IMG/VR virus record: IMGVR_UViG_3300033388_002987
Span: 32,001-96,000 of that record
Length of the DNA: 64,000 nucleotides
Direction: 5' to 3' (one strand)
Origin: a virus
Shown: piece by piece, positions 9,524 through 27,708 of the stretch
How the letters are laid out: every line of letters begins with the position of its first letter
Numbering within the stretch: the stretch's first letter is position 1
Position numbers and translations under genes: made by a program
Notes under the pieces: generated by a model
The model's input: only the letters and a program-made list of their open reading frames with translations
Told to the model about the DNA's origin: nothing
Database searches by the model: none

Positions 9524-9532
9524 AGGTTAGTT

Positions 9533-10354
9533 ATGATACCTAAATGGCTCTGGAATAAAACAATAGCAGTATACGATCTCGAAACAGACCGTATACCAAC
9601 GACCTTAATATATATGATGGGTGTATCAGTAGTAACTATCAACGCCAGAGGCGTTGCTACCTCAACTCCTAGTAAAGTCTTCACACACACCTGGACCTCT
9701 TACTCCAACGGAAGCCTTATGCAAGGCATCTCCTTAGTAAACTCCTGTGATTTCAGAGCTGGTCACAACTCCGTCGGATTTGATGACTACGAAGTTCGAA
9801 GGTATCTTAACATCCTACTTACTAAGCCAGCTCTCGACACTATGATACTCTCCAAGATAATCTTTTCCAAAGATGATCTCTTTGCTATGGATCCTCAACT
9901 AAAGATTGATAAAGACTTATGGGGAGGCTACTCGCTCAAGGCCTTTGGTCAACGACTAGGCGACTTTAAAATCTCCTTCGATAACTTCAACAAGATGAAC
10001 GAGGAAATGGCAGTATATTGTAATCAAGATGTAAATCTCACCAGTAAACTCCTACTTTTCCTTCTAAACAAAGAGAACTTCCCACTAGAACCTGTCGTAA
10101 CAATTGAACATCAGGCTGCTGCTATAATAGCTGAACAAACTGCCTTTGGTTTCTATATTGATATAGACTTAACTAGGAAGCTTAATACTAAGCTCCTTAA
10201 AGAAAAACTAGAACTATCTACTGAGCTCTCTAAGATCTTCTCTCCTAAGTTCTTAAAAGATGGTCCAGTTAAATCATACAAGAAAACAAGCAAGGTTAAG
10301 AAGTACCTTCCTAACACTCACTACATACCACTAATAGGAACTAATTATGACTAG
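9533..10354 (+). CDS. Family A (T7-like) DNA polymerase, N-terminal half: 3'-5' exonuclease and start of thumb
   Basis: ExoI YDLETD, ExoII GHNSVGFD, ExoIII YCNQDV, YSLKAFGQRLG and EHQAAAII..Q..FGFYID. The ORF stops inside the thumb insertion. Confidence 0.9.
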   Translation: MIPKWLWNKTIAVYDLETDRIPTTLIYMMGVSVVTINARGVATSTPSKVFTHTWTSYSNGSLMQGISLVNSCDFRAGHNSVGFDDYEVRRYLNILLTKPALDTMILSKIIFSKDDLFAMDPQLKIDKDLWGGYSLKAFGQRLGDFKISFDNFNKMNEEMAVYCNQDVNLTSKLLLFLLNKENFPLEPVVTIEHQAAAIIAEQTAFGFYIDIDLTRKLNTKLLKEKLELSTELSKIFSPKFLKDGPVKSYKKTSKVKKYLPNTHYIPLIGTNYD

Positions 10355-10514
10355 AGATGAAGCTCAAGGACTATCATTCTTCACAGAAGACGATGTAACT
10401 AAAAGTCTTGATAAACTTTATGACTTTTTTGGGAGTGATATTAAGAAACTAGAACAGCAAGTAGCTTATTGGAAGCTTAGCTTCCAAAAGCAATGTGAAG
10501 CGACAAGGTAAGTA

Positions 10515-10976
10515 ATGAACCTCTCAGACGATTCCATAGATCAAATCTATGAGTCCCTAGATTTATCCTGCTACCACTTCACTTGGTCCATTATAAACAA
10601 AGGCTCCAAAGGAGACTTTGTACTAGAATACATCCACCAAGAACTACTTCAAGACAGCTCTTTAACACGCTGCCTTGCATTAGTATTATGGGATAGTATG
10701 GACTGGAATGATGCTGTAACAGCTTATAATGATGAAGATTATCTAGTATTAACTACAGAAGAAGTAGACGATGAAATGCTAGAATCTGCCCAGAGTTATT
10801 TATATGAAGTAGTACTTCCAGAAATCCCGGAGTACCTACACTATTACTTCAATGAAGATACCTATATTAAAGACTACATTAATGATACAGTTCCCGGTGA
10901 AGTTATTGCAGACCATGATGGTGCGGAGCACTCTGTAGATGTAGATGGAACAACTTATTATATTTATAGAAAATAA
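10515..10976 (+). CDS. Highly acidic hypothetical protein (DNA-mimic candidate)
   Basis: About 34 D/E versus about 6 K/R in 153 aa by hand count; YYFNEDTYIKD is loosely reminiscent of ArdA C-terminal motifs. Confidence 0.6.
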   Translation: MNLSDDSIDQIYESLDLSCYHFTWSIINKGSKGDFVLEYIHQELLQDSSLTRCLALVLWDSMDWNDAVTAYNDEDYLVLTTEEVDDEMLESAQSYLYEVVLPEIPEYLHYYFNEDTYIKDYINDTVPGEVIADHDGAEHSVDVDGTTYYIYRK

Positions 10977-12456
10977 TACGCTCGTCTCTATAAGACGTCG
11001 GGTTTGTGAAGCGAGGCTAACAAAACCAGTAAATGAAGTTTGCTGTACAAATAAGTCTTGAGATAGATAGTGACTGCCTGCTAAAGTACACGGCTATAAA
11101 ATGCAATCAACATCTACTAGTAGTGATGGAATCAGTGACACCTTAAGTGGTCTGCGGATTCGCGGTAAACTTTATTCTAGATAAAGGGTACTTGACCGCT
11201 ACTTCGGTAGTAACATATATGGTGAGTACAGTTACATGAGACATTTTGAGTCTAAGGAACTTGACATCCCAGGGTCGAAGTCCCTGGGCTACTAAAAGTC
11301 TAAACGAGACTGTAAATTGTACCGAACCCTTTAAGTAGGGCTAAATTGCAGGTTGCGGCCAACAGTCCGTACTAATAAATAGAATGATGCAGAAATGTAG
11401 AAATAGAGACTTACCTGTTCCACCACCTTATCTAAGGGCAACACCGTGAAGCCGGGGAACGACCAGTACGATTTATCGCTGACCCTAGACGGTCTTCAGC
11501 TGAAGAAAGCGTCCAGCTTCCACTCCATTTGCCTTCATTGGAGTATAACATTAAGACACCGGGATTTATACACCTTGGTTAATACAAACGTATGATATGA
11601 GCAGTAGGCTGCCTGTGTAAGTCAGGCCTGGGACACCAAAAGTCACGTAGGACCACTAGACTATAAAATCCATGGTGCTTGCTGGGATGCAAGGTGTAAA
11701 CCGTCTGACCGCTGTAGAGGACGTTAAATAGGCAGATACTAGTGAATCTAAGCAATCATTAGTAGCTAGTAACGTCAATGACAGAATAAGCTACGGCTTA
11801 GGAATCTTCGTTATGAAGGTGCCCACTACCTTAAGTGTGGGAGCTATGTTGTACCCATTCGGAGGGAACCTGACGCAGGCATAGTGAGTTCGAAACCGTC
11901 TAGTTGTGACTACTAATTAAAGTACAGACAATCCCTGTGAGCATACATAGTGGTGCAGGCCACAGCTTATTCCCTGGTTTGGGGTACAGTCCGTTCAAAT
12001 CGAGACTGGGTAAGTCCTGTTAATGTATGTTCTTAGGGGTCGTCGCAGCATGCAAGCGAATGACCGCTAATCATAAATAAACATGTACCATTATTTGTCA
12101 GTTGCGTAAATTCGAAAGAAACTGTCTGGTCAAACATATAGCTGAGGGATGTAACCTTTCAAAGTATATCTCAGCACAAACAAATAAGCTTATGGAGCTA
12201 ATAGACTAGGTAGGGAATCCTGCACTATTGGTTCTAGTAAGTTTATCGGGTCAAGCAAATGCCCCTCACAGCCCACGCCAGTATGATTGGATTCAAAGGG
12301 AGTAGTAAAATAATATGTGCCAAACAACGTGTATGAGAGTAAATACTACCGTTATTGTGATGGGTGTGCCTAGCCAGGACCTGTAGACTACCAATTCACA
12401 ATTAAAACAAAGAATAATAACGTTATGGTGCCCAGCAAACCTGGGTACTAGTAACG
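10977..12456 (+). ncRNA. Putative very large structured ncRNA, or a cluster of ncRNAs; family unassigned
   Basis: About 1.5 kb with no ORF in the track, visibly more GC-rich than the flanks, with nearly continuous hairpins. Examples: GCTAC-TTCG-GTAGT 11198-11211; CCCAGGG/CCCTGGG 11268-11288; GCTGAG/CTCAGC ~12141-12175; terminal stem 12421-12456. Confidence 0.75.
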
Positions 12457-12473
12457 ACTATTAAAGGAATTAA

Positions 12474-12851
12474 ATGAACTTCAAAATAGGTGATTCAGTA
12501 CGTATTAAAACATTAGCAAACCTAACAGAACAGTACGGAGTGTATGGCGACGGTGATATAAGGTGCTCCCCTTACTTTAAACCATCTCACAAAATATACT
12601 GTGGAAGATCTGGTACTATATCATCAATAACTGATAATGGGATTGCACTTACAGAAGCAGCTTTTGATAATAACGTATTCTCCTCGAAAGTATTAGAACG
12701 AATAGTTGAACTTACACTAGTTAAAGGGCATATACTTATATGTGATTTTGATGCATACTCAATAAACATTAATATAAATAAAGGGTACACTATACGTGAA
12801 TTTCATGATAACAAATGTATAATGGTGTATTCCCCTATAAATACTTTATAA
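12474..12851 (+). CDS. Hypothetical protein with an SH3/KOW-like start (FKIGDSVRI)
   Basis: AAAGGA RBS. Confidence 0.6.
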   Translation: MNFKIGDSVRIKTLANLTEQYGVYGDGDIRCSPYFKPSHKIYCGRSGTISSITDNGIALTEAAFDNNVFSSKVLERIVELTLVKGHILICDFDAYSINININKGYTIREFHDNKCIMVYSPINTL

Positions 12852-12859
12852 GGTAATCT

Positions 12860-13405
12860 ATGAAACAATATGGAATAATACTAGGACGCATGCAACCAAT
12901 ACATATAGGCCACCAATCACTAATAGATAAAGTCATCTCCGATGACTTTACTCCTATAGTAATTCTTGGAACAGCTCAAGAATTTGGTACTAAGAAAAAC
13001 CCTTACCACCCTCTAGAACGTATCCATATGGTAAAATTAGTCTACCCTGACATCAGAGTATACGCCATGGACGATACTGAAGACTGGGATAAGTGGTTTA
13101 CAAACTTAGTAGATATCATCAAACTAATAGCTACTACTAACCTCTCCGAGGTTACAATATACACTCACAACAAACCTGAAGACCTTATGGACTTCACGTT
13201 CAAAGGTGTTGATTACACTAACGAGTACTACAGCAAATGCTACGAAATACTTGGTATCAATACAGAAAACATCAAAACATCTCACGTCCCTATAAGAGCC
13301 TCATCAATAAGAGCGAACTTAGAAATAAACAAACAATTCCTAGACCCTAAAGTCTACAACTACATAAAGGGCTGTAATGCTAAAACCAGTAACAATAATA
13401 TCTAA
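12860..13405 (+). CDS. Nicotinamide-nucleotide adenylyltransferase (NadM-like NMNAT)
   Basis: GRMQPIHIGH (HxGH), KNPYHPLERI and IRASSIR motifs; adjacent to NAMPT. Confidence 0.85.
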   Translation: MKQYGIILGRMQPIHIGHQSLIDKVISDDFTPIVILGTAQEFGTKKNPYHPLERIHMVKLVYPDIRVYAMDDTEDWDKWFTNLVDIIKLIATTNLSEVTIYTHNKPEDLMDFTFKGVDYTNEYYSKCYEILGINTENIKTSHVPIRASSIRANLEINKQFLDPKVYNYIKGCNAKTSNNNI

Positions 13406-13958
13406 AGAAAAATTAACAAACCCTAGATTCATCAGTACCTCAGCTCTTAACATCATTAGAGACAGCCACACCATGCAATGGGAAATGATTAACTCATTAC
13501 CAACAGTTCACATACTTGTAAACAAAGTAGACTCTCAAGAAATCTTACTAGTTAAACAAGTACGCCCTCCTGTTCTCTACAACAACAATGCACCACATGG
13601 TGAGTGCATCGAGGTATGTGCTGGACTAGTAGATAAGTACAGTAGACACCATGAAGATTCTCAAACTGCTTTAGTTGCTAAAGAAGAAGTACTTGAAGAA
13701 CTAGGTTACACTACAAGTTACATCCAAAGACTACAACCTATTCTAGGTTCTGTAGGAACAGCTGGCACTAAATTACATCTATTCTACACTGAAGTAACTG
13801 ATGCCAACTTCGTTGGCCAACAATTGGAGCCAACTGAGGATATCGAAGTAGTTAAACTATCTTACGAAAATGTATTAAATTTTATTAATACAACATCAAA
13901 CACAGACTCTACAACAATTATGTTATTACAATGGTTCTTATTAAATAAAAGGAAATAA
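13377..13958 (+). CDS. Nudix hydrolase (ADP-ribose/GDP-sugar pyrophosphatase-like)
   Basis: LVKQVRPPV, Nudix box variant EVCAGLVD..AKEEVLEELGY, and EDIEV. Confidence 0.85.
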   Translation: MLKPVTIISKEKLTNPRFISTSALNIIRDSHTMQWEMINSLPTVHILVNKVDSQEILLVKQVRPPVLYNNNAPHGECIEVCAGLVDKYSRHHEDSQTALVAKEEVLEELGYTTSYIQRLQPILGSVGTAGTKLHLFYTEVTDANFVGQQLEPTEDIEVVKLSYENVLNFINTTSNTDSTTIMLLQWFLLNKRK

Positions 13959-13959
13959 A

Positions 13960-15360
13960 ATGCAATCAATACTAAGCCTTGGAGACTCTTACAAGTACTC
14001 TCACAGTTCTCAATACCCTTCCAACACAGTCTCCATGTACTCTTACATGGAATCTCGTGGAGGAAAATACGAGGCAACTGTATTCGTAGGCCTACAATAC
14101 TACTTAGTAAAGTACTTAACAATCCCTGTAACATTACAAGAACTTGAAAAGACTAAACTCAAAGCGGCTGCCCATGGCATCCCCTTCGACTACGATGGCT
14201 GGTTACACATAATAAACAACCACAACGGTCTATTACCAATAAAAATTAAAGCAGTAAAAGAAGGCTCACTAATACCTGTAAAACATGTCCTATTAACAAT
14301 TGAATCAACTGACCCAGCTGTCCCTTGGATTGCTGGCTTCGTAGAAACTCTTCTAATGAAGATATGGTACCCAACAACTATAGCAACTAAGTCTTACTAT
14401 GTAAAACAAATGCTAACTAAATATGGCTCACCTGGATGGGCTCAATTTGCATATCATAACTTCGGAGATCGTGGAGCTACATCAGTTGAAGCCGCTGCAA
14501 TAGGTGGCATGGCCCACCTAACACAATTCAGCGGAACTGACAACTTTAACGCTTTAGACCTATGCGAGGACTTCTACGAAGAACCTATGGCAGGCTATTC
14601 TGTATACGCAACTGAGCACTCTACAACTACGTCCTATGGACGTGACGGTGAAGAACAATTCGTATACAACCAACTATTAGCAAATCCTGATAAGCCTATC
14701 ATGAGCTTCGTAGCTGACTCTTACGACGTGTACAACTTCACTGAATTCTGTACGGCTCCTGGTAGTCGTATTAGAAACCTAGTTGAATCTCGTCCACACC
14801 AAAAACTAGTCTTACGTCCAGATAGTGGCAACCCTTTAGAAGTACTACCTAAAATGCTAAATATAGCATTCCACAATGGCGCCATTACTACAGGCCCTAA
14901 AGGCGCTTACATATTTACTGATTTTGCGTTTCTTTGGGGTGACGGTATTACACCTGAAACTATAGAACTAATTCTTAAAGCACTTATTGAACTTGGTTAT
15001 GCAGCTGAAAACTTCGTTTTCGGCTCTGGTGGGGACTTAATGCAAAACATCAACAGAGACACTCAACGCTTCGCGATTAAGTGCTCTAATATTACAGTAG
15101 CTAAATCCTCAGGACAAGGCTTGCAACGTACTCACTACAATGAAGACATCGACGTCTACAAAGACCCTATTACCGACCCTGGTAAAGCATCTAAACGTGG
15201 CAAAGTAACTACTTGGTATGACACCTTATCAGGTGAAATAACCCAAGGACTGGTAAACACTCCTCCAAACTTAGACTGTATTTGTTTACTACAAACTGTC
15301 TTTGAAAATGGTAAGGTAGTTAAACCCACTATATTAGCTGAAATTAGAGAGGCAATATAA
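13960..15360 (+). CDS. nadV: Nicotinamide phosphoribosyltransferase (NAMPT)
   Basis: DSYKYSH, HNFGDRG, ATEHS, VADSYD, VLRPDSG, WGDGI, FGSGG and KDPITDPGKASKRG motifs. Confidence 0.95.
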   Translation: MQSILSLGDSYKYSHSSQYPSNTVSMYSYMESRGGKYEATVFVGLQYYLVKYLTIPVTLQELEKTKLKAAAHGIPFDYDGWLHIINNHNGLLPIKIKAVKEGSLIPVKHVLLTIESTDPAVPWIAGFVETLLMKIWYPTTIATKSYYVKQMLTKYGSPGWAQFAYHNFGDRGATSVEAAAIGGMAHLTQFSGTDNFNALDLCEDFYEEPMAGYSVYATEHSTTTSYGRDGEEQFVYNQLLANPDKPIMSFVADSYDVYNFTEFCTAPGSRIRNLVESRPHQKLVLRPDSGNPLEVLPKMLNIAFHNGAITTGPKGAYIFTDFAFLWGDGITPETIELILKALIELGYAAENFVFGSGGDLMQNINRDTQRFAIKCSNITVAKSSGQGLQRTHYNEDIDVYKDPITDPGKASKRGKVTTWYDTLSGEITQGLVNTPPNLDCICLLQTVFENGKVVKPTILAEIREAI

Positions 15361-15692
15361 TGGAACTACTCTTAGTAATCTCACTACTACTAGTCATCCA
15401 CTTCGTGGCTGACTTTCTACTACAATCTAATTGGATGGCTCAAAATAAATCTAAAAACAACAAGGTATTACTATATCATGTATCAGTATACTCACTACCG
15501 TTCATGGTCATCATAAGTCCCCTATATGGACTTATTAATGGTGCCCTTCACTTTGCTGTGGACTACTACACTTCACGCTATACAAGTAAGCTATGGAACT
15601 CTGGTGAGGTACATTGGTTCTTCGTTGTAATTGGTCTTGACCAATTACTACATATACTGTCCTTAATATGGACTTACCACTTATTATTTTAA
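15360..15692 (+). CDS. DUF3307-like membrane protein
   Basis: HFVADFLLQ, LLYHV, HFAVD and GLDQLLH pattern with hydrophobic helices. Confidence 0.7.
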   Translation: MELLLVISLLLVIHFVADFLLQSNWMAQNKSKNNKVLLYHVSVYSLPFMVIISPLYGLINGALHFAVDYYTSRYTSKLWNSGEVHWFFVVIGLDQLLHILSLIWTYHLLF

Positions 15693-15701
15693 AGGATTAA
15701 T

Positions 15702-16493
15702 GTGACTAAAGAACAAGTAGAGACACATGGAGAAGTAATTAAGTGGTTTTGTGATAATGCAGATAAAGGTGCATGGATGGCACACGAAAAAGGTTCATGG
15801 TCTTTAAGAATAGAACCTACATGGGACACTAATTGTTTTTACGTTCAAAACGACCAATATGCTGTCCTTCGTAAAGCTCAAGCAGATGGTAAGGCCATAC
15901 AAATAAGACAGAATCCTCATGCTAATTGGGTGGATGGTAACACCAAAGCATTCTCTTTATTATATGAATGCTATCGTATCAAACCAGATGAACCTAAATT
16001 TAAAGACTTACTTATACTTGGTGATTACTACAAGGCAGACACAGAAGGTAATATTCACTCCAAAAGAACTGGAAAGATATTGAAACCATACCTAGAAAAG
16101 AATGGCTATCTAACAGTAACCTTGTTTCATAAAGAGCAAGGCATAAAGAAAACTAAAACAGTACATAGACTAGTTATGGAAGCTTTCAATGGAGAAAATA
16201 CACTTGATGTAAACCATATAGATGAAGACAAGACTAACAATAAGCTGTCTAATCTTGAGTGGATGACAAGAAAAGAAAATGTAAATCATGGTACTGGTAG
16301 GGCAAGACAAGTTGAAGCTAATTCAACTCGAGTAAAAGCTACCCACCTAAAGACTGGAGAAGAGTTAGAATTTATATCATGTGCTGAAGCTATTAGACTT
16401 GGTTATGCAACATTAGATGTATATGAATATCTTAAAAGCAATACAAGATTATCACACAAGGGGATGAGATGGGAACTTCAGACAGATTCGTAA
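15702..16493 (+). CDS. Hypothetical N-terminal domain fused to an HNH homing endonuclease (NUMOD4/HNH-type)
   Basis: From ~aa 100: [42 protein letters not shown], then a NUMOD1-like tail. Confidence 0.8.
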
Positions 16494-16900
16494 CAATATG
16501 TACTCAATGTAGGTTGATTGATTACAACTGTAAATGTGGGGATGAAAAAACAAGTCCTTTTAAAGTAGGAGATTGGGTAAGAGTTACTTGTGAATTTTCC
16601 ACTACAATACAAAAGATATACAATATAACTCATGCTGCAATTAATTTTGAAGAGTTTTCTACCAAGAATATTAACACTAGGAGTTTTGCACCATTAAACG
16701 ACAGAGGGTTTAAAATTGAACTATGGCAACCAACTGAAGGTGAATGGTGTGTGTTTTGGGATAGAGAAACAACGGATAGATATTCAATTAGAAAATACAG
16801 AAATAAAGTTCCACAAGGGTATTTTGATGTAACATCAAAAGTATGGACAAACATAGCCCCACTAGAATTTATACAAACACTAAAGGACACGCATGCGTAA
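16469..16900 (+). CDS. Hypothetical protein, probably the 3' half of the gene interrupted by the HNH
   Basis: FKVGDWVRV follows the second copy of TTTAAAG. Confidence 0.55.
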
Positions 16901-18023
16901 ACTTGTAACAACAAGAACAGTAGACAAGCTAATACCAATCCCTAAAGCAGACCGCATAGAAATAGCCTTAATAGGTGGCTGGTCATGTATCGTTAAAAAA
17001 GGTGAGTTCTCTGAAGGAGATCAAGGCATCTTCTTCGAAATAGATTCTTGGATTCCTGAAACAGACTCTAGATTCTCTTTCCTAGGTTCTACTAAAGACT
17101 ACCTTGGTAACCAAGGTTGGCGTATACGCACAATGAAGATGCGTGGTGTAATCTCTCAAGGATTACTACTACCACTAGCATCATTCCCTGAGTTAAACTT
17201 GTCTAACGAATCTCACGAGGACGCACTTGGCGTACTTAAATGGGAACAGCAAACTGGTGATGACTCTCGTCTTGGTATAAAAACTTCAACTAAAGTTCCA
17301 AAGTTCCCTAGCTTCATCCCTAAGACTGATCAAGAACGCATTCAAAACTTAATGCACTACTTCAACACTCACAAGGAAATGCAATTCGAAGAGACACTAA
17401 AACTAGATGGCTCATCAATGACTTGTTATAAGATTGATAAAGAGTTTACTTTACTACAAAGGCTTGCAAATAACTTCGCCCTACACTTCAGAATCAAACC
17501 ATTCTTTAAAGGTGAACACTTTGGTGTATGTAGTAGGAACTTAGAGCTTAAGTCTACTGCTAACTATGAAACAACTTATGATAACGATGGTAAAACATCA
17601 ACCCATTCTCAAGGAAACTTCTGGAGAACAGCACTCAAGTATGGTATCCACACAGCACTTCCAGTAGGCTTCGCCATACAGGGAGAGCTTATCGGACCAT
17701 CAATCCAGGGCAACCACGAAAAGGTAGAGGAACTGGAGTATCATATCTACGATGTGTTTGCTATTAAACTAGGCCGTTATCTAACTCCAGAAGAACGCGT
17801 AGCGTTCTGTAAAGTCACACTAGCAGGAGTACCTCATGTACCAATTATCGGAACTTCAAAGGTATTCTCAGATGTAAACTCATTTGATGAACTACAAGCA
17901 AGAGTAACTGGAGAATCAATTAACCCTAAAACAGTATCAGAAGGTCGTGTCTACAAATCAATATGTGGCACAACAACCTTCAAAGCTGTATCAAATCAAT
18001 ACCTCCTTAAAGGCGGTAATTAA
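16893..18023 (+). CDS. ATP-dependent RNA ligase (DRB0094-like)
   Basis: RKLVT..IPKADRIE, MRGVISQGLLLP, TDQERIQN, motif I ETLKLDGSS, QGELIGPSIQGN, EGRVYK and FKAVSN. Confidence 0.9.
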   Translation: MRKLVTTRTVDKLIPIPKADRIEIALIGGWSCIVKKGEFSEGDQGIFFEIDSWIPETDSRFSFLGSTKDYLGNQGWRIRTMKMRGVISQGLLLPLASFPELNLSNESHEDALGVLKWEQQTGDDSRLGIKTSTKVPKFPSFIPKTDQERIQNLMHYFNTHKEMQFEETLKLDGSSMTCYKIDKEFTLLQRLANNFALHFRIKPFFKGEHFGVCSRNLELKSTANYETTYDNDGKTSTHSQGNFWRTALKYGIHTALPVGFAIQGELIGPSIQGNHEKVEELEYHIYDVFAIKLGRYLTPEERVAFCKVTLAGVPHVPIIGTSKVFSDVNSFDELQARVTGESINPKTVSEGRVYKSICGTTTFKAVSNQYLLKGGN

Positions 18024-18031
18024 GGACTAAA

Positions 18032-18679
18032 ATGGAACTCTGCTGTATCAGTGACACTCACAGTAAACACGCTCAACTAGACCTCACACAATACCCAGCA
18101 GACGTCCTAGTCCACGCAGGGGACTGGACAAGAAGTAATGACCTAGAGCTATCTGAGACTATTAATTTCCTTGAATGGCTTGAGAACCAACCCTATAAGC
18201 ACAAAGTGCTTATAGCTGGTAACCATGAAGTACAAGTAGAAGCTGATATTGAAAACTTTAAAAGAGTCTTAGCTATAATAGCTCCGTCAGTGACATTCTT
18301 AAACGACTCTGCTGTAATAATATCCGGCATCAAGTTCTACGGTTCACCTTACTCTAATGAGTTTTTTAACTGGGCTTTTATGGAAGACGAGTTTTACTTA
18401 AAGCATCGCTGGGATAAAATCCCAGACGATACTCAGGTACTAATAACACATGGCCCTGCATACGGCTGTAATGACCTAGTGAAACACTATAGAGGAGCTG
18501 ACCCTCATGTAGGTAGTAAGTCTTTACACTATCGTAAACTTACTATACAAGATTCTTTAAAGTTACACATAAGTGGGCATATACATGAGGCCTACGGGGT
18601 AACTGGTAATAGTGTCTGTGCTAGTGTACTTGATGAGAAATATCAATTGGTTAATAAGCCAATAGTAATGGAGATTTAA
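18032..18679 (+). CDS. Calcineurin-like metallophosphoesterase
   Basis: SDTH, HAGD, IAGNHE, THGP and GHIHE motifs. Confidence 0.9.
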   Translation: MELCCISDTHSKHAQLDLTQYPADVLVHAGDWTRSNDLELSETINFLEWLENQPYKHKVLIAGNHEVQVEADIENFKRVLAIIAPSVTFLNDSAVIISGIKFYGSPYSNEFFNWAFMEDEFYLKHRWDKIPDDTQVLITHGPAYGCNDLVKHYRGADPHVGSKSLHYRKLTIQDSLKLHISGHIHEAYGVTGNSVCASVLDEKYQLVNKPIVMEI

Positions 18680-18888
18680 TGAAAACTACACACATGTTCC
18701 CTGATAGAATGGGTAATGATATAACTATAGGCTGCACAGTAGCCGTAGTTGTTAAACGAGGGTGGGTTGCTGCATTAGCTTATGGAGAAGTACTTTCTGT
18801 AGACTCTAAGATAAAAGTAAAAGGATTTGGAGCTAAGCGTACTTGTAAAGAAGTACTAGTTCTAAAAACATTAAATGAAAACCAATAA
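18679..18888 (+). CDS. Hypothetical protein
   Basis: Coupled ORF (TAATG). Confidence 0.55.
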   Translation: MKTTHMFPDRMGNDITIGCTVAVVVKRGWVAALAYGEVLSVDSKIKVKGFGAKRTCKEVLVLKTLNENQ

Positions 18889-18904
18889 AACAAAGGAAAA
18901 CAAC

Positions 18905-19192
18905 ATGGCAAAAACAATCAGAAACGGAAGAGCATTTCCAAAATCAGTAAAATCAGCAGTTCTAGATGAACTAAGAAACGGTGTTAAATCACAAGTATCG
19001 ATTGGAGCTGCTCACAACGTGAGTAGCGTAACAGTATCCGCATGGGGAGCAGCTGCAGGTATTGCACCAGCAATCTCACAACCAGTTCAACTAGCAGCAC
19101 ATTGTGCACGTCTTAAAACAGCAACTGCTTTCAATACTCCTATACCACAAGCTGACGGGTCAATCCTATTCAAGGGTAAGTCTTACAGATAG
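18905..19192 (+). CDS. Helix-turn-helix DNA-binding protein
   Basis: FPKSVKSAVL..SQVSIGAAHNVSSVTVSAW HTH pattern. The start is moved to 18905 because of the AAAGGA RBS. Confidence 0.6.
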   Translation: MAKTIRNGRAFPKSVKSAVLDELRNGVKSQVSIGAAHNVSSVTVSAWGAAAGIAPAISQPVQLAAHCARLKTATAFNTPIPQADGSILFKGKSYR

Positions 19193-19194
19193 TC

Positions 19195-19580
19195 AACTAG
19201 GTTACGGTATTAGGCCGTTTATAAATAGCAGGTCGCTTACCTATTACTCCTCTTATAGTAACGCTCAACTTAGGGCGGTACCTGCTTGCAGAACTGTAGT
19301 GGAGGCCAATGCGACATGCCTAATAAGTACTAGCAGTCTGTCAAGACTATAAACTTGTCTGACATAATCTCTCAGAAGTATCTCTACCCATACTAATTGA
19401 GGTAGATGCAAAAAGACACAGCAACTGTATAAGGCTAGAGCAGGGTGGATCCTGCTTACATTTAGTACTCCTAAGAGCATCAACAGCACCATGTAAGGGG
19501 TGCGTTGTAGCAGAGAAGGTTTACACCTTCTCGGTACCGAGCAGGTACATGCAACAGCTGATGTTCTAAGGAATACTAAT
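19195..19580 (+). ncRNA. Putative structured ncRNA (~390 nt); family unassigned
   Basis: Intergenic; long closing stem 19462-19482/19559-19579 enclosing three hairpins, plus several upstream hairpins. Confidence 0.65.
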
Positions 19581-19598
19581 AAATTTTAAAGGAATAAC

Positions 19599-20579
19599 AT
19601 GACAGGTTTACAAGAATTAATTAATAAGATAAAAGCTGAGGATCACTCAGCGTACTTAGCACTGCTAAATAAGATAAATGGTGAGAAAATGGACAGGTAC
19701 GCCATTGGTAAATTATTTGCAAGTGCTACATTCACAAAAATAACTAATAATCAGTTACTACTACTACGCTCTATGAGTTTTAAAGGTGGTGATACTATCT
19801 GGCTTAGCACGTATAACCGTACACTTTCAAGCTTTGAAAATAGGTTTCAGAATACGCGTGGAGACTACCAGTTGAAATATGGTATTGATTCTCTACCAAA
19901 AGTTGATACTAAATTTATAACTACCTACCACAGAACTCAATGGCGTAAAGCTAACCCGTCTACTCGTAAGAACGGTCCTGCTAAAGGTACTCAATTTACA
20001 TTTAAAATGGATATGTTCTCACTAACCATCTTTAAAAATAGTATAAAGAACGAGTTCCTCCGCACCGAGGGTAAGAACTTTATAATGAAAGTCAATAAGG
20101 CTTTCAGTGAGTCAGAAGGTAATGATTCCCATACTAAGATACGTAATAAATTTTATGCACTGATACTTGATAATACTCCAGTACATACTAAAGCTATGAT
20201 AAATGAATTAAGTCCAACTGCTTTAAAAACTAATGGTACTTACTACATACCTGATGCTGATGAAGCAATAATAGTAGGATTCCGTTGGGGAGGTGATAAC
20301 GAAGTTAGCTACGCTACATCCTATAGCATGGACACATACTCAACTGACTTACCACTAGTAACACACAACATCGGATCAGAAGATGAACGTCACAATAATA
20401 GGTTACTATCAGCCAGCTCTATGTTACTAACAGCACACGCCTCGACAGATTGTGAAGCTTATAAGTCTGCAGCTACACGTATGGTAAAACACTTACCAAG
20501 AACTATAGTCACAGCTGCTTTAGCAAAAACACAAGCCGTAGCGACACTACGCTCAATCTTAAAGGAATCAAATGAATAA
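19599..20579 (+). CDS. Hypothetical protein
   Basis: 326-aa ORF with AAAGGA RBS. Confidence 0.7.
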   Translation: MTGLQELINKIKAEDHSAYLALLNKINGEKMDRYAIGKLFASATFTKITNNQLLLLRSMSFKGGDTIWLSTYNRTLSSFENRFQNTRGDYQLKYGIDSLPKVDTKFITTYHRTQWRKANPSTRKNGPAKGTQFTFKMDMFSLTIFKNSIKNEFLRTEGKNFIMKVNKAFSESEGNDSHTKIRNKFYALILDNTPVHTKAMINELSPTALKTNGTYYIPDADEAIIVGFRWGGDNEVSYATSYSMDTYSTDLPLVTHNIGSEDERHNNRLLSASSMLLTAHASTDCEAYKSAATRMVKHLPRTIVTAALAKTQAVATLRSILKESNE

Positions 20580-20769
20580 TACAATCACAACAATACTCTC
20601 TACAAACATTAAAGGGCAATTAGCCGGAGCAGACATAGGTGGAGGTATCTGTATAGCTGGGTCACCAGGTATCGGTAAAACTCAAACTATGTACAAGATA
20701 GCTAAAGACTTAAACATGGAGATTGTGCAAGTATCAATCCCAGAAGTATCCACTGAAAACCTTTCGGGT
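20572..20769 (+). CDS. MoxR-type AAA+ ATPase (N4 gp24-like), exon 1
   Basis: Walker A GSPGIGKT; ends ENLSG immediately before the intron. Confidence 0.85.
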
Positions 20770-21851
20770 TAACAAACAATTGAACATTACACTTAAAACC
20801 TACCACGATGAGAATATAAAAATGATAATGGTAGTCTAAAGTAATAATGTTTAATTTGTTACAGCCCCTCTACACAGTAATGTGTATAGCAAATCCCTTT
20901 AATTGCTGGGAACTCTTGTAAGTTTTAATACTACAATAACCGTGAAAACAGGTTATGAATGTTTAACAAATTAAAAATAGAGACAATCAGCAGCCAAGCT
21001 CCGTATAGGAGAAGGTTCAACGACTAGTGCATTGTGCACGTACACCTAAGTAGGTGGAAATGGGGGACATCTTTAAACTAACTTTAAGAAATTTCTCGGT
21101 ATACTTACTTATCTAATTTAAGGAAGTACAATGGGAAATAAAGAAATTTTCAAACCAGTCAACTCTAAATACGGTACTCGTTACGAAGTGTCAAATCAAG
21201 GAAGACTGAGAATAACAACTAAGTGTGGAACAAAGCTCCGAACAGGTAGCTTACACCCTCAAATGCATACTACATATGTAAAAGCATCATTATCTAATAA
21301 TGGTATAAACTACACAGTACATATGCACAGACTAGTTGCCGAGGCATTCATACCGAATCCTGACAATAAACCATTCGTAAATCATAAAGATAAGGATGGT
21401 ACTAATAATAATGTATCTAATCTAGAGTGGACAACTCCCTCAGAGAATATGCAACATTCCGCTGATAATCTAGCCCTTAATAGTAAAGCTAAAAGCACAA
21501 AGAAACGTATAACTACGGTAACTCTTGACAGCTTTGAAGATTACTTAACATATATAGGCAAAGACATCGGAGGACGTACTATTATTGGTGTACAGTATAA
21601 GAAACTAACAATAGGCAATAAGCCTGTATTTAAGTGGTTTGGTGTTTATACTTGTAACAATTGTCAAGACGAAATAAGTAGCCCTTGGAATCAAACAATG
21701 AGAAGATCACTAGAAGGACGTAAGCAATTTTGCTTACAATGCTCTAGAAAGTTAAAACCTAAAGATGAAGATATAGTCTAGCCTACACAGAGATGTGTAG
21801 CTGCAGGTAATGCTGCGGACACAGCCTAACGAGCTGTGTTGAATATAAGCG
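20770..21851 (+). mobile_element. Group I self-splicing intron (1082 nt) encoding an HNH endonuclease
   Basis: P AATTGCTGGGAA 20901, Q AATCAGCAG 20985, R GTTCAACGACTA 21015, S AAGATATAGTCT 21768. The exon ends in T, the intron ends in G (21851), and removal gives the in-frame junction LSG|IPDF. Confidence 0.92.
21131..21781 (+). CDS. Intron-encoded NUMOD4-HNH homing endonuclease
   Basis: YEVSNQGR, MHRLVAEAFIPNPDNKPFVNHKDKDGTNNNVSNLEW and C-terminal CxxC pairs. The stop overlaps the S element. Confidence 0.9.
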   Translation: MGNKEIFKPVNSKYGTRYEVSNQGRLRITTKCGTKLRTGSLHPQMHTTYVKASLSNNGINYTVHMHRLVAEAFIPNPDNKPFVNHKDKDGTNNNVSNLEWTTPSENMQHSADNLALNSKAKSTKKRITTVTLDSFEDYLTYIGKDIGGRTIIGVQYKKLTIGNKPVFKWFGVYTCNNCQDEISSPWNQTMRRSLEGRKQFCLQCSRKLKPKDEDIV

Positions 21852-22853
21852 ATTCCAGACTTCCTTGACGCTCAACATATGGATGCTTACTCAGTAACTG
21901 GTACAACTGACTCACAAGCTACTAAATGGTCTGTACCTCAAATTATTGAAACAGTAAACCGCTTAGCTGCTACACCCGGCAAAGCCGGTTGTATCTTATT
22001 CATAGATGACTTGCACCGTGTAAACATGGCAGTAGCTCCCTACTTATACGGTCTCCTTGGAGAACGTAAACTAGGCTCTTATAGACTTGACGGAAAAGTG
22101 GCTATCATGGGCGCAATGAACGACTCTGACGAAGCAGGCTTCTCAGGAGTAGACAGCCCTATTAAAGATAGAATTGGTATTTTACCAGTTCCATTCGACT
22201 TTGAATACTGGTTTGATAACTTTGGTAAACACCTACACTTCTATGTAAGTTCATTCTTAAAAACTCATTCTAGCTATGTACAAGAAGATGAATCAACTAT
22301 GATTGAGCAATTTGCTACACCGCGTTCGTGGTCACACCTTGCAAATGAGTTTGAACTATACGACTTGGATTTCATCCAAGCACATACTACCTTACTTGCA
22401 AAACAAAAGGTATCTATTGCAGCTGCAAATGAACTTCAAAAACACATCGCATACGTTGAGGCAATTGACTTCACAGCTAAAATCAAAGCTAAGCAACCTA
22501 TCAATATAGCTGGACTTAAACCTATTGACCAGATCTTGTATGCATACATCATTAACTATGTTACTGATATAGAAGATGCAAAATACGTTATGAGTCTTAT
22601 TGATGGTAATATTGATTCAGCTAACTTCATTGGCTTCATAATAGGAGAGCTTTACAACAAGTTCATCGCTAAAGAAGGTGGCAAGCATATCAACGACGGC
22701 CTTACAATTATCTTAGAAAAATTGCTTAAATCAGATTACAACCCAGAATCTTATAATAAACCTATGAGTAAGGCTGTAAAAGAAACTTATGACAAGTTAT
22801 CATTCGCTGAACACGATAAGTTGTTCGCTGTAGCGTCAGAGTTTATACATTAA
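21852..22853 (+). CDS. MoxR-type AAA+ ATPase, exon 2 (spliced product ~399 aa)
   Basis: IPDF..KWSVP, Walker B ILFIDDLHR, IMGAMN, DSPIKDR and ATPRSW. Confidence 0.85.
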   Translation: MPDFLDAQHMDAYSVTGTTDSQATKWSVPQIIETVNRLAATPGKAGCILFIDDLHRVNMAVAPYLYGLLGERKLGSYRLDGKVAIMGAMNDSDEAGFSGVDSPIKDRIGILPVPFDFEYWFDNFGKHLHFYVSSFLKTHSSYVQEDESTMIEQFATPRSWSHLANEFELYDLDFIQAHTTLLAKQKVSIAAANELQKHIAYVEAIDFTAKIKAKQPINIAGLKPIDQILYAYIINYVTDIEDAKYVMSLIDGNIDSANFIGFIIGELYNKFIAKEGGKHINDGLTIILEKLLKSDYNPESYNKPMSKAVKETYDKLSFAEHDKLFAVASEFIH

Positions 22854-22855
22854 CA

Positions 22856-23928
22856 ATGGTTGGTAGAGTAGTACTTCCTGGTAGTACTTTAACACTACAG
22901 TGTATCATAGACGCTACTAGGTCAATGGACTACCCAAATTACGGTAAACTTAAACGCCAGGTAGAAAGTATTCGCAATCCAATTGAACAACTCTTTCGCC
23001 TTAAAGCCCTTATTGATAATCCTATGCTTGATATTAGTACTCGTAATGCAGCTACCTTAATACTAAAGGACTTACAAAATGGACAAATTTAAATGGAAAA
23101 TATTCATTGAAGTACTAGAAAATAGCCCTACTGAACTATCACTAGACCTCTTCGAAGAGTCCCTACTAGCTCTTCCTACGGAAGACCTAAACTCAGTTGC
23201 TGAAGCACTTAAATGCACCACATCAACACCTTCAGACGTCAAAACAGCTAAGCATGTTATAGAAATGCTGCAAATATTATGGCACTACCAGTAGCGCTAG
23301 TAAATACTTTACGTAGTGGCTCTATAGGGGTTGCAGGACTTGCATTAAAGAACTATATAATAAGTTTACAAAAGTTTGAGCAGGTATTTGTAATACAAAG
23401 TCTACTAGATAGTGATTTAAAGAAACTATGTGGTAGAAGTGGGGTATCCCTTTATGTTAAGCATATACTACTAGATCTAAGGACTAAAAATGGGTAAACA
23501 GTATAACCCTTGGGACCCATGTTATCAAATGTGGAAAAGCTTTATTAATACAACTTGCTTAGGATGCTCAAAGATGCAAATACTATTTAAAGTACAAGCC
23601 TTTAGGAATAATAAGCACCACAAATATTTAGATAACTTAGAATGTCTTGATAAAGTACTAAAAGATATTAACAATGGATAAGTTTCAACGTGAACTAATG
23701 ATAGTTACAATATGTAATACTAGCACTATTACTGAAGAGCAAGCATTAGCATTCACTACACAGCTTGACCATGAATTTAAGCATAATGCCTATACCCTTA
23801 CTTATCCTATGGTACGCCTAGCTAGACTATTAGACTACGATAAGTACCCTACTGAAGTTCATGCATTTACAACACATGTATTACTAAAAGCGGACATACA
23901 AAAATATAACAATAAAAGGGAGACTTAA
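22856..23928 (+). CDS. Run of five small overlapping hypothetical ORFs (22856-23092, 23079-23294, 23279-23497, 23490-23681, 23674-23928)
   Basis: Head-to-tail overlapping ORFs of 63-84 aa between the AAA+ and VWA genes. Confidence 0.55.
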
Positions 23929-25373
23929 TGAATACACAAGACTTTATAAAAGAAGCAGAAAACCTTATCTATAAAGAAGTAGCTAAAAATACTAACCTTA
24001 TTTTAGGTAAGGCCAAGACTGCCTCACTAAGTACAGGACTATTCCTTAAGCTTCCAATAGAGGTAGTAGTTGAAAAAACTAGCGAACCAGTACCTAAATT
24101 ATATAAAGAACTAAAGTCTTTCATAAACTACTTTGGCGCTTACGTAATGCACGGTAATAGCTCTAAAGCTTACTTCAAATTCATGTATCATGATGAGAAA
24201 GATTTAACTGTTATATCAAATCACTTACATCGTCACGGTATGTTCTTTGCTTTTGTGTACTTACACGAAATCCAACACATAATAAGAAAGCATAACACCA
24301 GCTCGTATGAAACTATGATGACCCGTATATGTGGCGACACCGCATTCCCACATGAAATAATCAACATAGCAGAAGATCATGCTATTAACTATAGCCTTAA
24401 AGATTTATTCATAGCAGCAAAACTTAATCGTCAATGGACTCCTATTGAAGAAATTGGTATGTACAATCAAACATACCACAACGACCAACTATCAGACATT
24501 GATATCCTTAAAGACCTATTAAAGAAGAACCCTCCAATTACTAAGACACAAATCTCAGACATGATGTCTAAGATAACATGTGACGGTAAGGAGTCACTCC
24601 AACCTACTGACCCAGGAGGTAGCACACCTGCTGCCTCGAATAACGGTAAAGTAGATAAAACAAGTACATCGTCTGACGACGCTGACATAGCACTTTCAGA
24701 CCTATCTGAGTCAATACAAGATATCATACGTACCAACACTAAAGGTACTACAGCTGGCGACCTCTTCGAACAACTATTTGATTCAATTAAAGTTGAAACA
24801 GGTTGGTTCAAGAAGATCAAAGCATCATTCAAACGTCAAGTCTACTATAAGACTCATGACTACACAACTAGCTGGGCTAACCTTAACAACACATTTAGAC
24901 GTATTTACAAGTCACCTAAGAAGACCTTCATTGATAACAAGATTAATATCATATTATCAGTGGACCACAGTGGCTCTATGAGCACTGAAGACCTTCAAAA
25001 GTTACTCTACCTAGTCGAGTCTGAGTCAAACCGTATAGCATCTCTAAAGGTACTTATACACGATACTCGTGTAATTAAAGAGTTCTTAATAGAAGATGAT
25101 TATGACATAGCTAACAACCCTGAATTTAAGGAAGCCCTAGCGACTCGTTACACCTCCGGTGGAACTAGTCATAAATGTGTATTTGAACATATCCAAGACT
25201 CTAAACTAGTAGACCCTAATATGGTAATCTATATGAGCTTCTCAGATAACTATTCTGACATTGAGCAATGCTTTAAGTCTTATCCAGTAATGCGAAAGCT
25301 AACTAATTACTGGATCTGTGCTGGAGCTAATAACCCTGTATCAGTTCCTGGTACTAATATAATGATGGTATAG
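23928..25373 (+). CDS. Metallopeptidase-like (HExxH) plus VWA-domain protein (N4 gp25-like), partner of the MoxR ATPase
   Basis: YLHEIQH, NIAEDHAIN, MIDAS SVDHSGSM, IHDTRV and GGTS. Confidence 0.85.
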   Translation: MNTQDFIKEAENLIYKEVAKNTNLILGKAKTASLSTGLFLKLPIEVVVEKTSEPVPKLYKELKSFINYFGAYVMHGNSSKAYFKFMYHDEKDLTVISNHLHRHGMFFAFVYLHEIQHIIRKHNTSSYETMMTRICGDTAFPHEIINIAEDHAINYSLKDLFIAAKLNRQWTPIEEIGMYNQTYHNDQLSDIDILKDLLKKNPPITKTQISDMMSKITCDGKESLQPTDPGGSTPAASNNGKVDKTSTSSDDADIALSDLSESIQDIIRTNTKGTTAGDLFEQLFDSIKVETGWFKKIKASFKRQVYYKTHDYTTSWANLNNTFRRIYKSPKKTFIDNKINIILSVDHSGSMSTEDLQKLLYLVESESNRIASLKVLIHDTRVIKEFLIEDDYDIANNPEFKEALATRYTSGGTSHKCVFEHIQDSKLVDPNMVIYMSFSDNYSDIEQCFKSYPVMRKLTNYWICAGANNPVSVPGTNIMMV

Positions 25374-25375
25374 TA

Positions 25376-25642
25376 ATGGATAAGTTTAAGCTAATTATTT
25401 TAGAAAACCTTGCTAATAATACTAATCCTACCTTTGTAGGTGTAAGTACTTGCTTAGATTATTTATTAACCAAGAAGATTTGCATATGGTCAGAGACTAT
25501 AGAATATCTCTCATTTAATAAACCTAGTGGTCGAACTAAGCGTATAGCGAAAGCTTTACATAGAAATACTAAAGGCCTTGTAGGGCATAGCCACTATTTA
25601 GTATTCTTTAAAAATCATATGGATAAATATTTCAAGGATTAA
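25376..25642 (+). CDS. Hypothetical protein
   Basis: Tightly packed ORF. Confidence 0.5.
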   Translation: MDKFKLIILENLANNTNPTFVGVSTCLDYLLTKKICIWSETIEYLSFNKPSGRTKRIAKALHRNTKGLVGHSHYLVFFKNHMDKYFKD

Positions 25643-25643
25643 C

Positions 25644-26336
25644 ATGAACCAATTCCAATACACACTAGCTATGAATAAAATACCTACACTTAAAACTCAT
25701 AAAGCGAAAGAAGAATTTGCTAGGGAGATCTACGAAGTATTAGAGCCTCATGGTAAATGCTATTCTATGGATGTTAAAGACGACAACATACAAACTATAG
25801 TAAACGGGTATAAATGCCTTTGTGTAATAATACCTTTATGTACCAGTGCTAAAGGTTTACCACAATTTATAACTACCATACATGAGAACTGTCGTATAAG
25901 TTTACTAAGACGATGCACTAATACTAATAATATTACGTACGATGAGTATATTGATATGTTTCAATATGAGACTAATGAATTAAATTTTAGTAATGGGTAC
26001 CCTAGTAGTAGACAGCCATTTATTGACTTAATTGGAACTAACATTCAACCATATAAAATAGATCTAAATTTACGTGCAACAAATCAAGGCACTTATAGTG
26101 TACCATCATTTGATTTGTATACCCACAATCAATTACTGACTCTAGAAATGTATAAAGACCTAGCACTAAAAAGTAAAGTATTAACAGTAGTAGAAGATGA
26201 GTTAAAACGCCTTTATAGTCTAGTAGCTTCCCTAGACACTGCAGCTATGTTAACTGACTTAGACGATATAACACGCTCAGCTAATCTAATAACTAGTACC
26301 ATAAAGGCTCGCAATGAACAAGTTGGCACCATATAA
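25644..26336 (+). CDS. Hypothetical protein
   Basis: AAGGA RBS; 230 aa. Confidence 0.65.
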   Translation: MNQFQYTLAMNKIPTLKTHKAKEEFAREIYEVLEPHGKCYSMDVKDDNIQTIVNGYKCLCVIIPLCTSAKGLPQFITTIHENCRISLLRRCTNTNNITYDEYIDMFQYETNELNFSNGYPSSRQPFIDLIGTNIQPYKIDLNLRATNQGTYSVPSFDLYTHNQLLTLEMYKDLALKSKVLTVVEDELKRLYSLVASLDTAAMLTDLDDITRSANLITSTIKARNEQVGTI

Positions 26337-27687
26337 GATACCATACGGACGCTACCTGAAATCAGGTGAGTACAGACCTCCAGGTAAGAAATCACTAAAG
26401 TGGTTCACAACCCCTCACAGAACTATTCACGTCACCCGTGAGGGTGACTACCAACAAGTAAAATACGAAGCCTTCAACCCTGGCTCACGCCATAACATCC
26501 GTCAATGGATGGAAGAGGACTTCGGCTATACATTCCCTTACTACACTCCCAAAGGTAACCCTAAAGTAGATGTAGATTCCCTAGAGAACATGCAACATCC
26601 TTCAGGTAAGCTCCTTAGACGTTACCTGAAGGTAACGAAAGACCAATCTCAAGTGGGAGGAGCCGACGGTTCACTAGTTAAAAACTACAATGAAACTCAG
26701 CGTACTGTAAAGTCAAGGACTGACACTAATGGAACGGTAACAGGCAGGTTCACTAGTAGCTCAATTAACTTAGCACAGATACCTGCACAACAAGAGTTCC
26801 GAGAACTTTTCAGGGCACCTCAAGGCTGGTCCTTCTTAGGAACAGACTTTAGTGGACAAGAGAACGTCAACCTAGCAGAAATGCTCTACCCATACGACGA
26901 TGGACGCCTAGCGGACATCATCGCCTCAGGTAACAAGGACGATGGTACAGACCTTCACTCCCTAAACGCTAAAGCCTGTGGCATCTCCCGTGGAGACGCT
27001 AAACCACTTTGGTTTGGATTCCTATACGGATCCTCTCCAACCTTAACAGGCTACACGTTACTAAAGCATGGCTTCTTTGCTGACTACACTCCTAAAGAGT
27101 TTACTGCTATGGAGAAGAAACTTAAACGTAGAGTAATCTCGCTAGACACTGGTGAATTCTACCCAATCAAGAAAGACGCACTAGTACCATTCAATAAACA
27201 GCTTATTATACAAGCGCTCTTTGGTGCTAAAGTACAAGCAGACCTTATTGCATCAACACATGGACTTGCAAGCCTCATTAAGAACTTAACTATGACAGCT
27301 AAGGCAAATGGGTATGTAACTATGTTTGGCGGCCGCAGGGTACCTATACGTCACGCTCACGCTACACTTAACTCACAACTACAAGGTATGGGTGCTGAAG
27401 CAATGAAGCACTACCTAGTATTCTATCACGAGGAAGCTAAGCGCCAAGGTTTACACCATGGCCAACACTTCAAACAAGAAGCTTGTATTTACGATGAGGT
27501 AGACTTAATAGTACGTGATGATAAACGCTTTGAAATAGCTGATATCCTCCAAGGTACTTACGAAAAGGTCTCCACACACTTAGGTATGAAATGTACTTAT
27601 ACAGGCGAGGTCCTCATAGGAGGTCACTCTAAAGACAAGCATGGCCCTAACGGCCTTGCTGATAACTCGTGGCAAGGATGTCACTAA
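26314..27687 (+). CDS. Family A (T7-like) DNA polymerase, C-terminal half: rest of thumb, palm and fingers
   Basis: FNPGSR, TVTGRFTSSSINLAQIP, motif A GTDFSGQE, motif B RGDAKPLWFGFLYG, LNSQLQG and motif C IYDEVD. Own AAAGG RBS at 26303. Confidence 0.92.
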   Translation: MNKLAPYKIPYGRYLKSGEYRPPGKKSLKWFTTPHRTIHVTREGDYQQVKYEAFNPGSRHNIRQWMEEDFGYTFPYYTPKGNPKVDVDSLENMQHPSGKLLRRYLKVTKDQSQVGGADGSLVKNYNETQRTVKSRTDTNGTVTGRFTSSSINLAQIPAQQEFRELFRAPQGWSFLGTDFSGQENVNLAEMLYPYDDGRLADIIASGNKDDGTDLHSLNAKACGISRGDAKPLWFGFLYGSSPTLTGYTLLKHGFFADYTPKEFTAMEKKLKRRVISLDTGEFYPIKKDALVPFNKQLIIQALFGAKVQADLIASTHGLASLIKNLTMTAKANGYVTMFGGRRVPIRHAHATLNSQLQGMGAEAMKHYLVFYHEEAKRQGLHHGQHFKQEACIYDEVDLIVRDDKRFEIADILQGTYEKVSTHLGMKCTYTGEVLIGGHSKDKHGPNGLADNSWQGCH

Positions 27688-27708
27688 CATTATTTAATAG
27701 GATATAAC

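Follow-up and report, generated by a model that had tools for sequence, protein, structure and literature searches.

How can a replicative DNA polymerase work when its gene lies in two parts 16 kb from each other? This question is raised by the genome of an uncultured phage, the 117,954-bp IMG/VR virus record IMGVR_UViG_3300033388_002987 (here G000), which has terminal repeats and a completeness rating of complete, and of which bases 32001-96000 were analyzed (64,000 nucleotides, called the window in what follows; positions are those of the window). Every gene from window position 1 to ~50,000 lies on the + strand. Among them are the two parts of the phage's only T7-type family A DNA polymerase (PolA), two intact genes 16 kb apart, whose open reading frames (ORFs) lie exactly where a preliminary description made from the sequence alone had placed them:

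9533..10354, + strand: PolA N-half (P0001), 273 amino acids (aa); 3'-5' exonuclease domain, first two polymerase-domain helices, and basic tail ending IPLIGTNYD
26314..27687, + strand: PolA C-half (P0002), 457 aa; rest of the thumb loop, thumb helices, palm, and fingers

The spacing between the two ORFs is 15,959 bp. The sequence AAAGG precedes the ATG of each, in agreement with the ribosome binding sites noted in the same description. Each half shares some nucleotides with a neighbor: the N-half stop codon runs into the beginning of the following ORF, and the last 23 nt of the ORF at 25644..26336 are also the first of the C-half. No second PolA was found in the 117,954-bp genome, as PF00476 matches this locus only; other polymerase families were not searched.

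Both halves are intact and T7-like

The N-half carries the motifs Exo I (D15/E17), Exo II (N79...D84, NSVGFD), and Exo III (Y162...D166, YCNQD), the residues of which are invariant or nearly so in an alignment of 40 homologues. The C-half matches the Pfam family PF00476 with 89.1 bits (gathering cut-off 34.3) and displays motif A (D178...E183), motif B (R226/K230/F234/Y238, with a Phe at F234 where T7 gp5 has Y526), motif C (D394-E395), and a terminal histidine (H457); the three motifs and the C-terminal His are invariant in 50 homologues, so that the full catalytic set initially ascribed to the two halves is indeed present. Both match the same protein family, phrog_17, and do so end to end, the N-half at positions 715-910 and the C-half at 894-1209. 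The AlphaFold models of the single chains (pLDDT 91 for the N-half, 88 for the C-half) lead to the same assignment. Residues 11-236 of the N-half model match residues 1-261 of T7 gp5 (1sl2; best Z 19.5), and residues 52-457 of the C-half model match gp5 332-704 (Z 31.4, root-mean-square deviation 2.1 A over 336 residues) as well as Klenow 575-928 (Z 26.5). T7 gp5 is the best match of both halves in structure and in sequence (PDB 1T7P, 1SKS, 6P7E and others). The Exo motifs, the polymerase motifs, the PF00476 match, and a fold comprising exonuclease, thumb, palm, and fingers all place this polymerase among the T7-like members of family A.

The cut lies inside the polymerase domain

Aligned in sequence to T7 gp5, the N-half reaches about residue 271 and the C-half starts at 323; in the fold comparison the N-half aligns up to gp5 261 and the C-half only from gp5 332, which corresponds to Klenow 575. 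The polymerase domain itself is therefore divided, and neither chain holds a complete set of domains. In the N-half, the exonuclease domain is followed by two polymerase-domain helices (residues 186-205 and 211-235), and the C-half begins with about 50 basic residues, of low confidence in the AlphaFold model, ahead of FNPGSR. Sequence alignment and fold match to gp5 thus locate the cut in the thumb insertion equivalent to the T7 thioredoxin-binding loop, just before FNPGSR, the very site that had been proposed from the sequence.

Relatives with a fused polymerase (about 690-710 aa; ~40% identity to the N-part and up to 65% to the C-part) run continuously through this point (...LPNxxYxxxW/..PYxxP..K.KNGK...). 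When the N-half tail (...KKYLPNTHY-IPLIGTNYD) is set before the C-half head (MNKLA-PYKIPYGRYLKSG...), the fused sequence is recovered with no loss and no duplication, and the residues that exceed the sequence common to the fused forms number only about 9 in the N-half and about 5 in the C-half. The fission is thus clean, and it lies in the loop corresponding to the T7 thioredoxin-binding insertion, not at the boundary between exonuclease and polymerase domains.

The split is conserved in a widespread clade

Viral contigs were fetched with each half, and the whole records were then searched. In all seven genomes rated 86-100% complete, that of the window included, both halves are present on the same strand and in the same order, with the following gaps between them:

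G017: 602 bp
G006: 897 bp
G014: 3,699 bp
G004: 8,098 bp
G015: 11,267 bp
G003: 12,017 bp (circular assembly, 127-bp overlap)
G000 (window genome): 15,959 bp

Two contig fragments, G013 and G016, have a polymerase half but no N-half in the stretch of contig that precedes it (10.3 and 12 kb, respectively). A fused polymerase gene, with an open frame of 697-715 aa, occurs in the 66-74-kb genomes G007, G008, G009, and G011. In a database of 5.8 billion proteins, more than 35 clusters of stand-alone polymerase halves (about 440-460 aa) start at the same place with M..L.PY.IP..K.YKNG, and their catalytic residues are invariant. The closest relatives of the N-half in a set of 1.84 billion representatives are likewise stand-alone proteins, of about 250-280 aa, that share its end point. 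The tail YxPL[LI]GT[KN] runs up to the stop codon in G000, G003, G005, G006, G014, and G015; that of G004 differs (NNNYIPVW). Within the clade, the N-half helices 186-235 are 62-70% identical, versus 38-63% for the exonuclease core. Since a whole group of related phages is split alike, the split is real.

Further breaks were seen among these relatives. In the more distant G010 and G012 (L026, L028) the polymerase is broken elsewhere, at polymerase-half residue 90-100, into frames of 337 aa and about 350 aa, the pieces being about 1.5 kb apart in G012 and about 0.4 kb apart in G010. The polymerase halves of G003 and G004 are interrupted again near residue 170, just before motif A, by an insert of 0.9-1.0 kb (L012 2222-2518 on the - strand, L013 525-1500, L011 2302-3192), which encodes a zinc-finger, GIY-YIG-like ORF of 238-248 aa and has no Rfam match; that of G003 also has a 297-nt group I intron (63.6 bits) near residue 240.

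A heterodimer as the probable working form

Based on the divided domain, the conserved helices and termini, the co-occurrence of the halves, and the split polymerases already published, a non-covalent heterodimer is most likely the working form of this enzyme, as judged from the anatomy of its genes and proteins. We propose that, in a lineage of N4-like phages, a T7-type family A polymerase was split by gene fission at the flexible, basic insertion of the thumb tip, and that its two products would be translated apart, one consisting of the exonuclease and the first two polymerase-domain helices (273 aa), the other of the remaining thumb, the palm, and the fingers (457 aa). The halves would then reassemble non-covalently into the equivalent of the roughly 700-aa fused polymerases, the chains being held together by the thumb helices and the exonuclease/polymerase interface. 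After the cut, the space between the genes would have become a tolerated landing site, growing from 0.6 to 16 kb by the arrival of accessory genes (NAD salvage, RNA repair, homing endonucleases, and others). This sequence of fission, reassembly in trans, and gap growth is in our view the best explanation as a whole, and a quite probable one.

Several observations speak for the heterodimer. Both new termini are conserved, the two halves co-occur in 7/7 near-complete genomes, and the fused relatives are collinear across the cut; the helices 186-235 of the N-half add to this, because a free exonuclease would not need them. A heterodimeric PolA assembled in trans had been suggested in the preliminary description: its basis, the split at gene level, holds, and we infer from it the physical assembly and joint activity of the halves, which is the best-supported reading. 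Three points weigh against it. The tail of the N-half (236-273) and the head of the C-half (1-50) are of low confidence in the single-chain models, which do not resolve the docking of the cut ends; the expression of two genes 16 kb apart raises the matter of their relative timing and stoichiometry; and a second exonuclease gene, to which the preliminary description made no reference, lies close downstream of the polymerase half and might do the proofreading instead:

28761..29717, + strand: second DEDD exonuclease, 318 aa, with a C-terminal zinc ribbon; full-length match to phrog_403 'DNA polymerase exonuclease subunit' (E 3e-97)

This gene starts 1.07 kb downstream of the C-half, has intact motifs, and has homologues in G001 and G015; its family is widespread, with members in phiKMV-like, Xp10, ICP1, rV5-like, and mycobacterial phages. 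This exonuclease might be an alternative proofreader, and its presence argues for independent halves, in which case the C-half alone would be an exonuclease-less polymerase, perhaps proofread by the phrog_403 exonuclease, and the N-half a free exonuclease with another role. The resemblance of the N-half exonuclease core to small stand-alone exonucleases such as NrnC (Z about 15 in the fold comparison) and the 16-kb separation, which abolishes translational coupling, point the same way. Yet ~85 residues of the N-half, two helices and a loop, belong to the polymerase domain and align to PolA only, not to stand-alone exonucleases; they are the best-conserved part of the N-half within the clade, and they are missing from the C-half but present in every fused relative. 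Moreover, PolAs are reported to need their exonuclease domain for stability (PMC10201439), and none of the seven near-complete genomes has one half without the other. We therefore judge independent halves to be unlikely.

A second alternative is that the halves are joined into a single chain, by a trans-spliced group I intron or by split-intein ligation. This phage does use group I introns (in an ATPase gene between the halves, see below, and in the polymerase half of its relative G003). However, about 9 and about 5 extra residues are far too few to form the two parts of an intein, and a Pfam search at E <= 10 gave no Hint or intein family; a split intein was rejected on these grounds. In split-intein 'fractured genes' an N-intein follows the N-extein and a C-intein precedes the C-extein (PMC2677866), whereas the window halves carry no intein sequence at either end. 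Rfam gave no match at E <= 1 in 10200-12600 or 25300-26600, a search that misses some group I introns. The flanks of both break ends are coding, each end abutting or overlapping a neighboring ORF, and the protein termini there are conserved, a stop codon with its conserved tail and a Met start having been kept across many lineages. The earlier statement that neither end bears an intein or intron sequence agrees with these results, and joining appears extremely improbable. Equally little credence can be given to an assembly artefact, or to a decaying pseudogene pair in a phage relying on another polymerase: the genome is a metagenome assembly, but the same architecture recurs in independent assemblies from different samples with conserved synteny, which led us to reject misassembly and, together with the seven near-complete genomes, upholds the initial view of a natural split, while the catalytic residues are invariant over the more than 35 clusters and no other PolA is found in the genome (other polymerase families not searched).

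One probable old fission, and possibly exchanged polymerase halves

How often the polymerase was cut depends on which part of it is compared. A tree of whole polymerase halves, which suggested at least 8 changes between split and fused states, requires 9 of them, a count that we discount because the polymerase halves are mosaic. Those of P0203-P0216 and P0180 are 70-85% identical to that of the window over residues 1-120 and about 30% beyond, where they group with another PolA lineage; in G016 (L119) the neighboring genes are 58-76% identical to those of the window and the polymerase half only 39%. In a tree of residues 25-125 only, 32 of the 38 split forms fall in one clade (SH-aLRT 90), with the fused P0170/P0175 and P0178 as sisters of the main split clade, and the well-supported branches require no more than 2 changes. 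The G017-like and P0188-like lineages, also split, begin a few residues earlier, ahead of a conserved Trp. From this thumb-segment tree and the earlier start of these lineages, we read one old fission for the clade of the window and at least one independent fission in the same loop.

These observations can be combined into a broader proposal, namely that fission at the thumb tip made a modular enzyme of two cassettes. Several lineages would have acquired a cut in this loop independently of each other, recombination would have exchanged the palm-fingers part of the polymerase half between lineages, the first ~120 residues, a thumb stub fitting the exonuclease subunit, would stay with the backbone, and the space between the halves would be inherited as a landing pad for genes of a counter-defence type (NAD salvage, RNA repair). 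We put this joint proposal forward tentatively, as it is rather unlikely when taken as a whole. The freed basic loop ends may also have found new uses, for instance as binding sites for a processivity factor or for the acidic tails of proteins that partner in the replisome.

What made the cut can be considered from the shortest gaps. No endonuclease domain was recognized in the small ORFs of the gaps of G006 and G017, and the HNH genes inside the gap of the window (15702-16493 and 21131-21781) lie away from its edges; the shortest gaps lend no support to a cut made by a homing endonuclease. The N-terminus of the G006 polymerase half (…KKLTWIPDNSY…) resembles the end of its own exonuclease half (…KSKVWLPNKDY…) (L022 11699-11900; significance not assessed), possibly a short duplication left by the fission event.

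An island of accessory genes between the halves

The 15,959 bp that separate the halves contain the following features, along with a DUF3307 gene and several further small ORFs:

10355..26313, + strand (all genes): island between the halves, 15,959 bp, about 24 genes
10977..12473, no strand assigned: 1.5-kb stretch without long ORFs (no ORF >60 aa, no tRNA, no Rfam family)
12860..13405, + strand: cytidylyltransferase-like / NMN adenylyltransferase-like (NMNAT-like) gene
13960..15360, + strand: nicotinamide phosphoribosyltransferase (NAMPT)
15702..16493, + strand: free-standing HNH endonuclease (HNH_3 + NUMOD4)
16893..18023, + strand: ATP-dependent RNA ligase, DRB0094 type
18032..18679, + strand: metallophosphoesterase
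20572..20772, + strand: AAA ATPase exon 1 with Walker A (phrog_1297 positions 24-68)
20847..21135, + strand: group I intron core (RF00028, 50.2 bits, full model)
21131..21781, + strand: intron-associated HNH homing endonuclease (HNH/NUMOD4), 216 aa
21879..22853, + strand: AAA ATPase exon 2 (phrog_1297 positions 74-299)
23928..25373, + strand: conserved 481-aa protein (phrog_1314, 'HNH endonuclease')
25644..26336, + strand: conserved 230-aa ORF

About 24-25 genes can be counted here, close to the 25 unrelated genes of the preliminary description; that number stands, but not the counting of each ORF as a gene, since two ORFs are exons of one ATPase gene. In G013 the matches to these exons are 27 nt apart and in the same frame, which suggests that the ATPase gene is uninterrupted there; in G003 they are about 520 bp apart. 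No match to the endonuclease at 21131-21781 turned up in the parts of G003, G013, and G015 that were searched.

The flanks of the island are syntenic with the fused-PolA genome G007, with ThyX (7190-7864) upstream and, downstream, a primase in two ORFs, a PD-(D/E)XK nuclease, a Sak4-like protein, and SSB. A tblastn search with the gap ORFs of at least 50 aa returned nothing from G006, nor from the 20 kb covered around the fused polymerase gene in G007. Judging from these comparisons, the gap is an insertion island that appears to have formed after the cut. Most of its genes are shared with the gaps of G003, G004, and G015, and with the DNA that precedes the polymerase half in G013 and G016. 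A homologue of the 23928-25373 gene lies upstream of the polymerase half in six relatives, and in five of these the homologue of the 25644 ORF comes next. The 3.7-kb gap of G014 (L117 2543-4754) differs, with a CCA-adding/poly(A)-polymerase-like gene and an RlaP RNA-repair-type gene. With its genes of NAD salvage and RNA repair, the island looks like a landing pad for counter-defence-type genes.

Conservation of the 10977-12473 stretch in relatives is limited to patches of 33-53 nt, and the only near-identical DNA in cultured phages is a 45-bp exact match to Pseudomonas phage HPP-Temi at 11983-12027. PDB and NCBIfam searches of four gap proteins (23928-25373, 21879-22853, 19599-20579, and 25644-26336) gave no usable match. 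Scans of 9000-28500 for sigma-70 promoters and terminators were uninformative, with fewer promoter-like sites than in shuffled sequences and only weak terminators on the + strand. Downstream of the polymerase, the DNA primase is apparently in two ORFs too (29926-31332, phrog_2135 26-465; 31530-32423, phrog_2135 462-705), about 200 bp apart, and its two parts are adjacent also in G006 and G007.

Comparison with known split polymerases

Is such a split new? A fission between exonuclease and polymerase was described, as the first in PolAs, in S-SBP1-like T7-like cyanophages (Czernecki et al., 2023, NAR, PMC10201439); the two S-SBP1 proteins are predicted to assemble (AlphaFold2 complex), and the cut is reported to have arisen via a 1-nt frameshift, the genes overlapping (PMC10201439). 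In Synechococcus phage DSL-LC07, an S-SBP1-like example that we examined, the exonuclease has 172 aa, the polymerase 426 aa, and the genes overlap by 40 nt. The window polymerase resembles this type in being a T7-type family A enzyme in two genes, without intein or intron, with both parts intact and assembly in trans inferred. It differs in that the S-SBP1-type cut falls at the exonuclease/polymerase boundary, whereas ours lies 85 residues further on, inside the polymerase domain, and in that the genes, instead of overlapping, are 0.6-16 kb apart in the window clade and can have as many as about 24 others in between. LUZ24-like Pseudomonas phages, annotated with a 'DNA polymerase part I / part II' (PMC3890496), likewise have a PolA in two genes with unrelated, in their case small, ORFs in between; in UFV-P2, about 10 ORFs separate part I (16151-16666) from part II (18765-20405) (PMC3890496). 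However, their part I is a 171-aa exonuclease only (part II 546 aa), cut at the domain boundary, their gap is 2.1 kb, and their PolA belongs to a different lineage. Split PolAs have also been mentioned for an uncultured cyanophage lineage (10.1101/325100) and for OM43 phages (PMC10580990). T7 gp5 itself has its insertion at the same site of the thumb tip, but as part of one 704-aa chain, in which this loop binds host thioredoxin; in the window polymerase the loop is severed.

Outside family A, gp43A and gp43B of Aeromonas phage 25 co-purify and are active (PMC2988022), and what lies between the two genes in phages 25 and 44RR is no more than a seg endonuclease gene or a short untranslated spacer (PMC2988022); the N and C parts of the PhiKZ DNA polymerase form a 1:1 complex with a cryo-electron microscopy structure (PMC13648687). 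These, too, are replicative phage polymerases made of two polypeptides, but they belong to family B and have other break points. The preliminary description had invoked gp43A/gp43B as its precedent, which stands, but is not required, because split family A polymerases have already been published (PMC10201439, PMC3890496). A comparable case in another essential enzyme is that of the 'genes in pieces' NrdA-a/NrdA-b of Aeh1, created by mobE (cited in PMC2988022): there also the enzyme is split at gene level and reassembled from two proteins, but a homing endonuclease lies at the break, unlike in the shortest gaps of our dataset (G006, G017), where none is recognizable.

Split PolAs and split polymerases assembled in trans are thus already documented, and the present case adds no new principle; what is new with respect to the published splits is the thumb-tip site inside the polymerase domain, the distance of up to 16 kb, and the island grown in the gap. 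The cut offers a natural split site, tested by evolution, at which the engineering of a two-piece T7-type polymerase could be tried, and the two proteins are a tractable pair for studying the assembly of split polymerases and a possible separate regulation of exonuclease and polymerase genes. Surveys that use PolA as a viral marker, as well as automated annotation, should be expected to encounter 'exonuclease-less' polymerases or 'orphan' exonucleases in this widespread clade. For the family itself, the boundary between exonuclease and polymerase is not the sole place where a replicative member tolerates being cut, since the thumb tip, well within the polymerase domain, is another, and the two genes can drift 16 kb apart while apparently staying functional over long evolutionary time.

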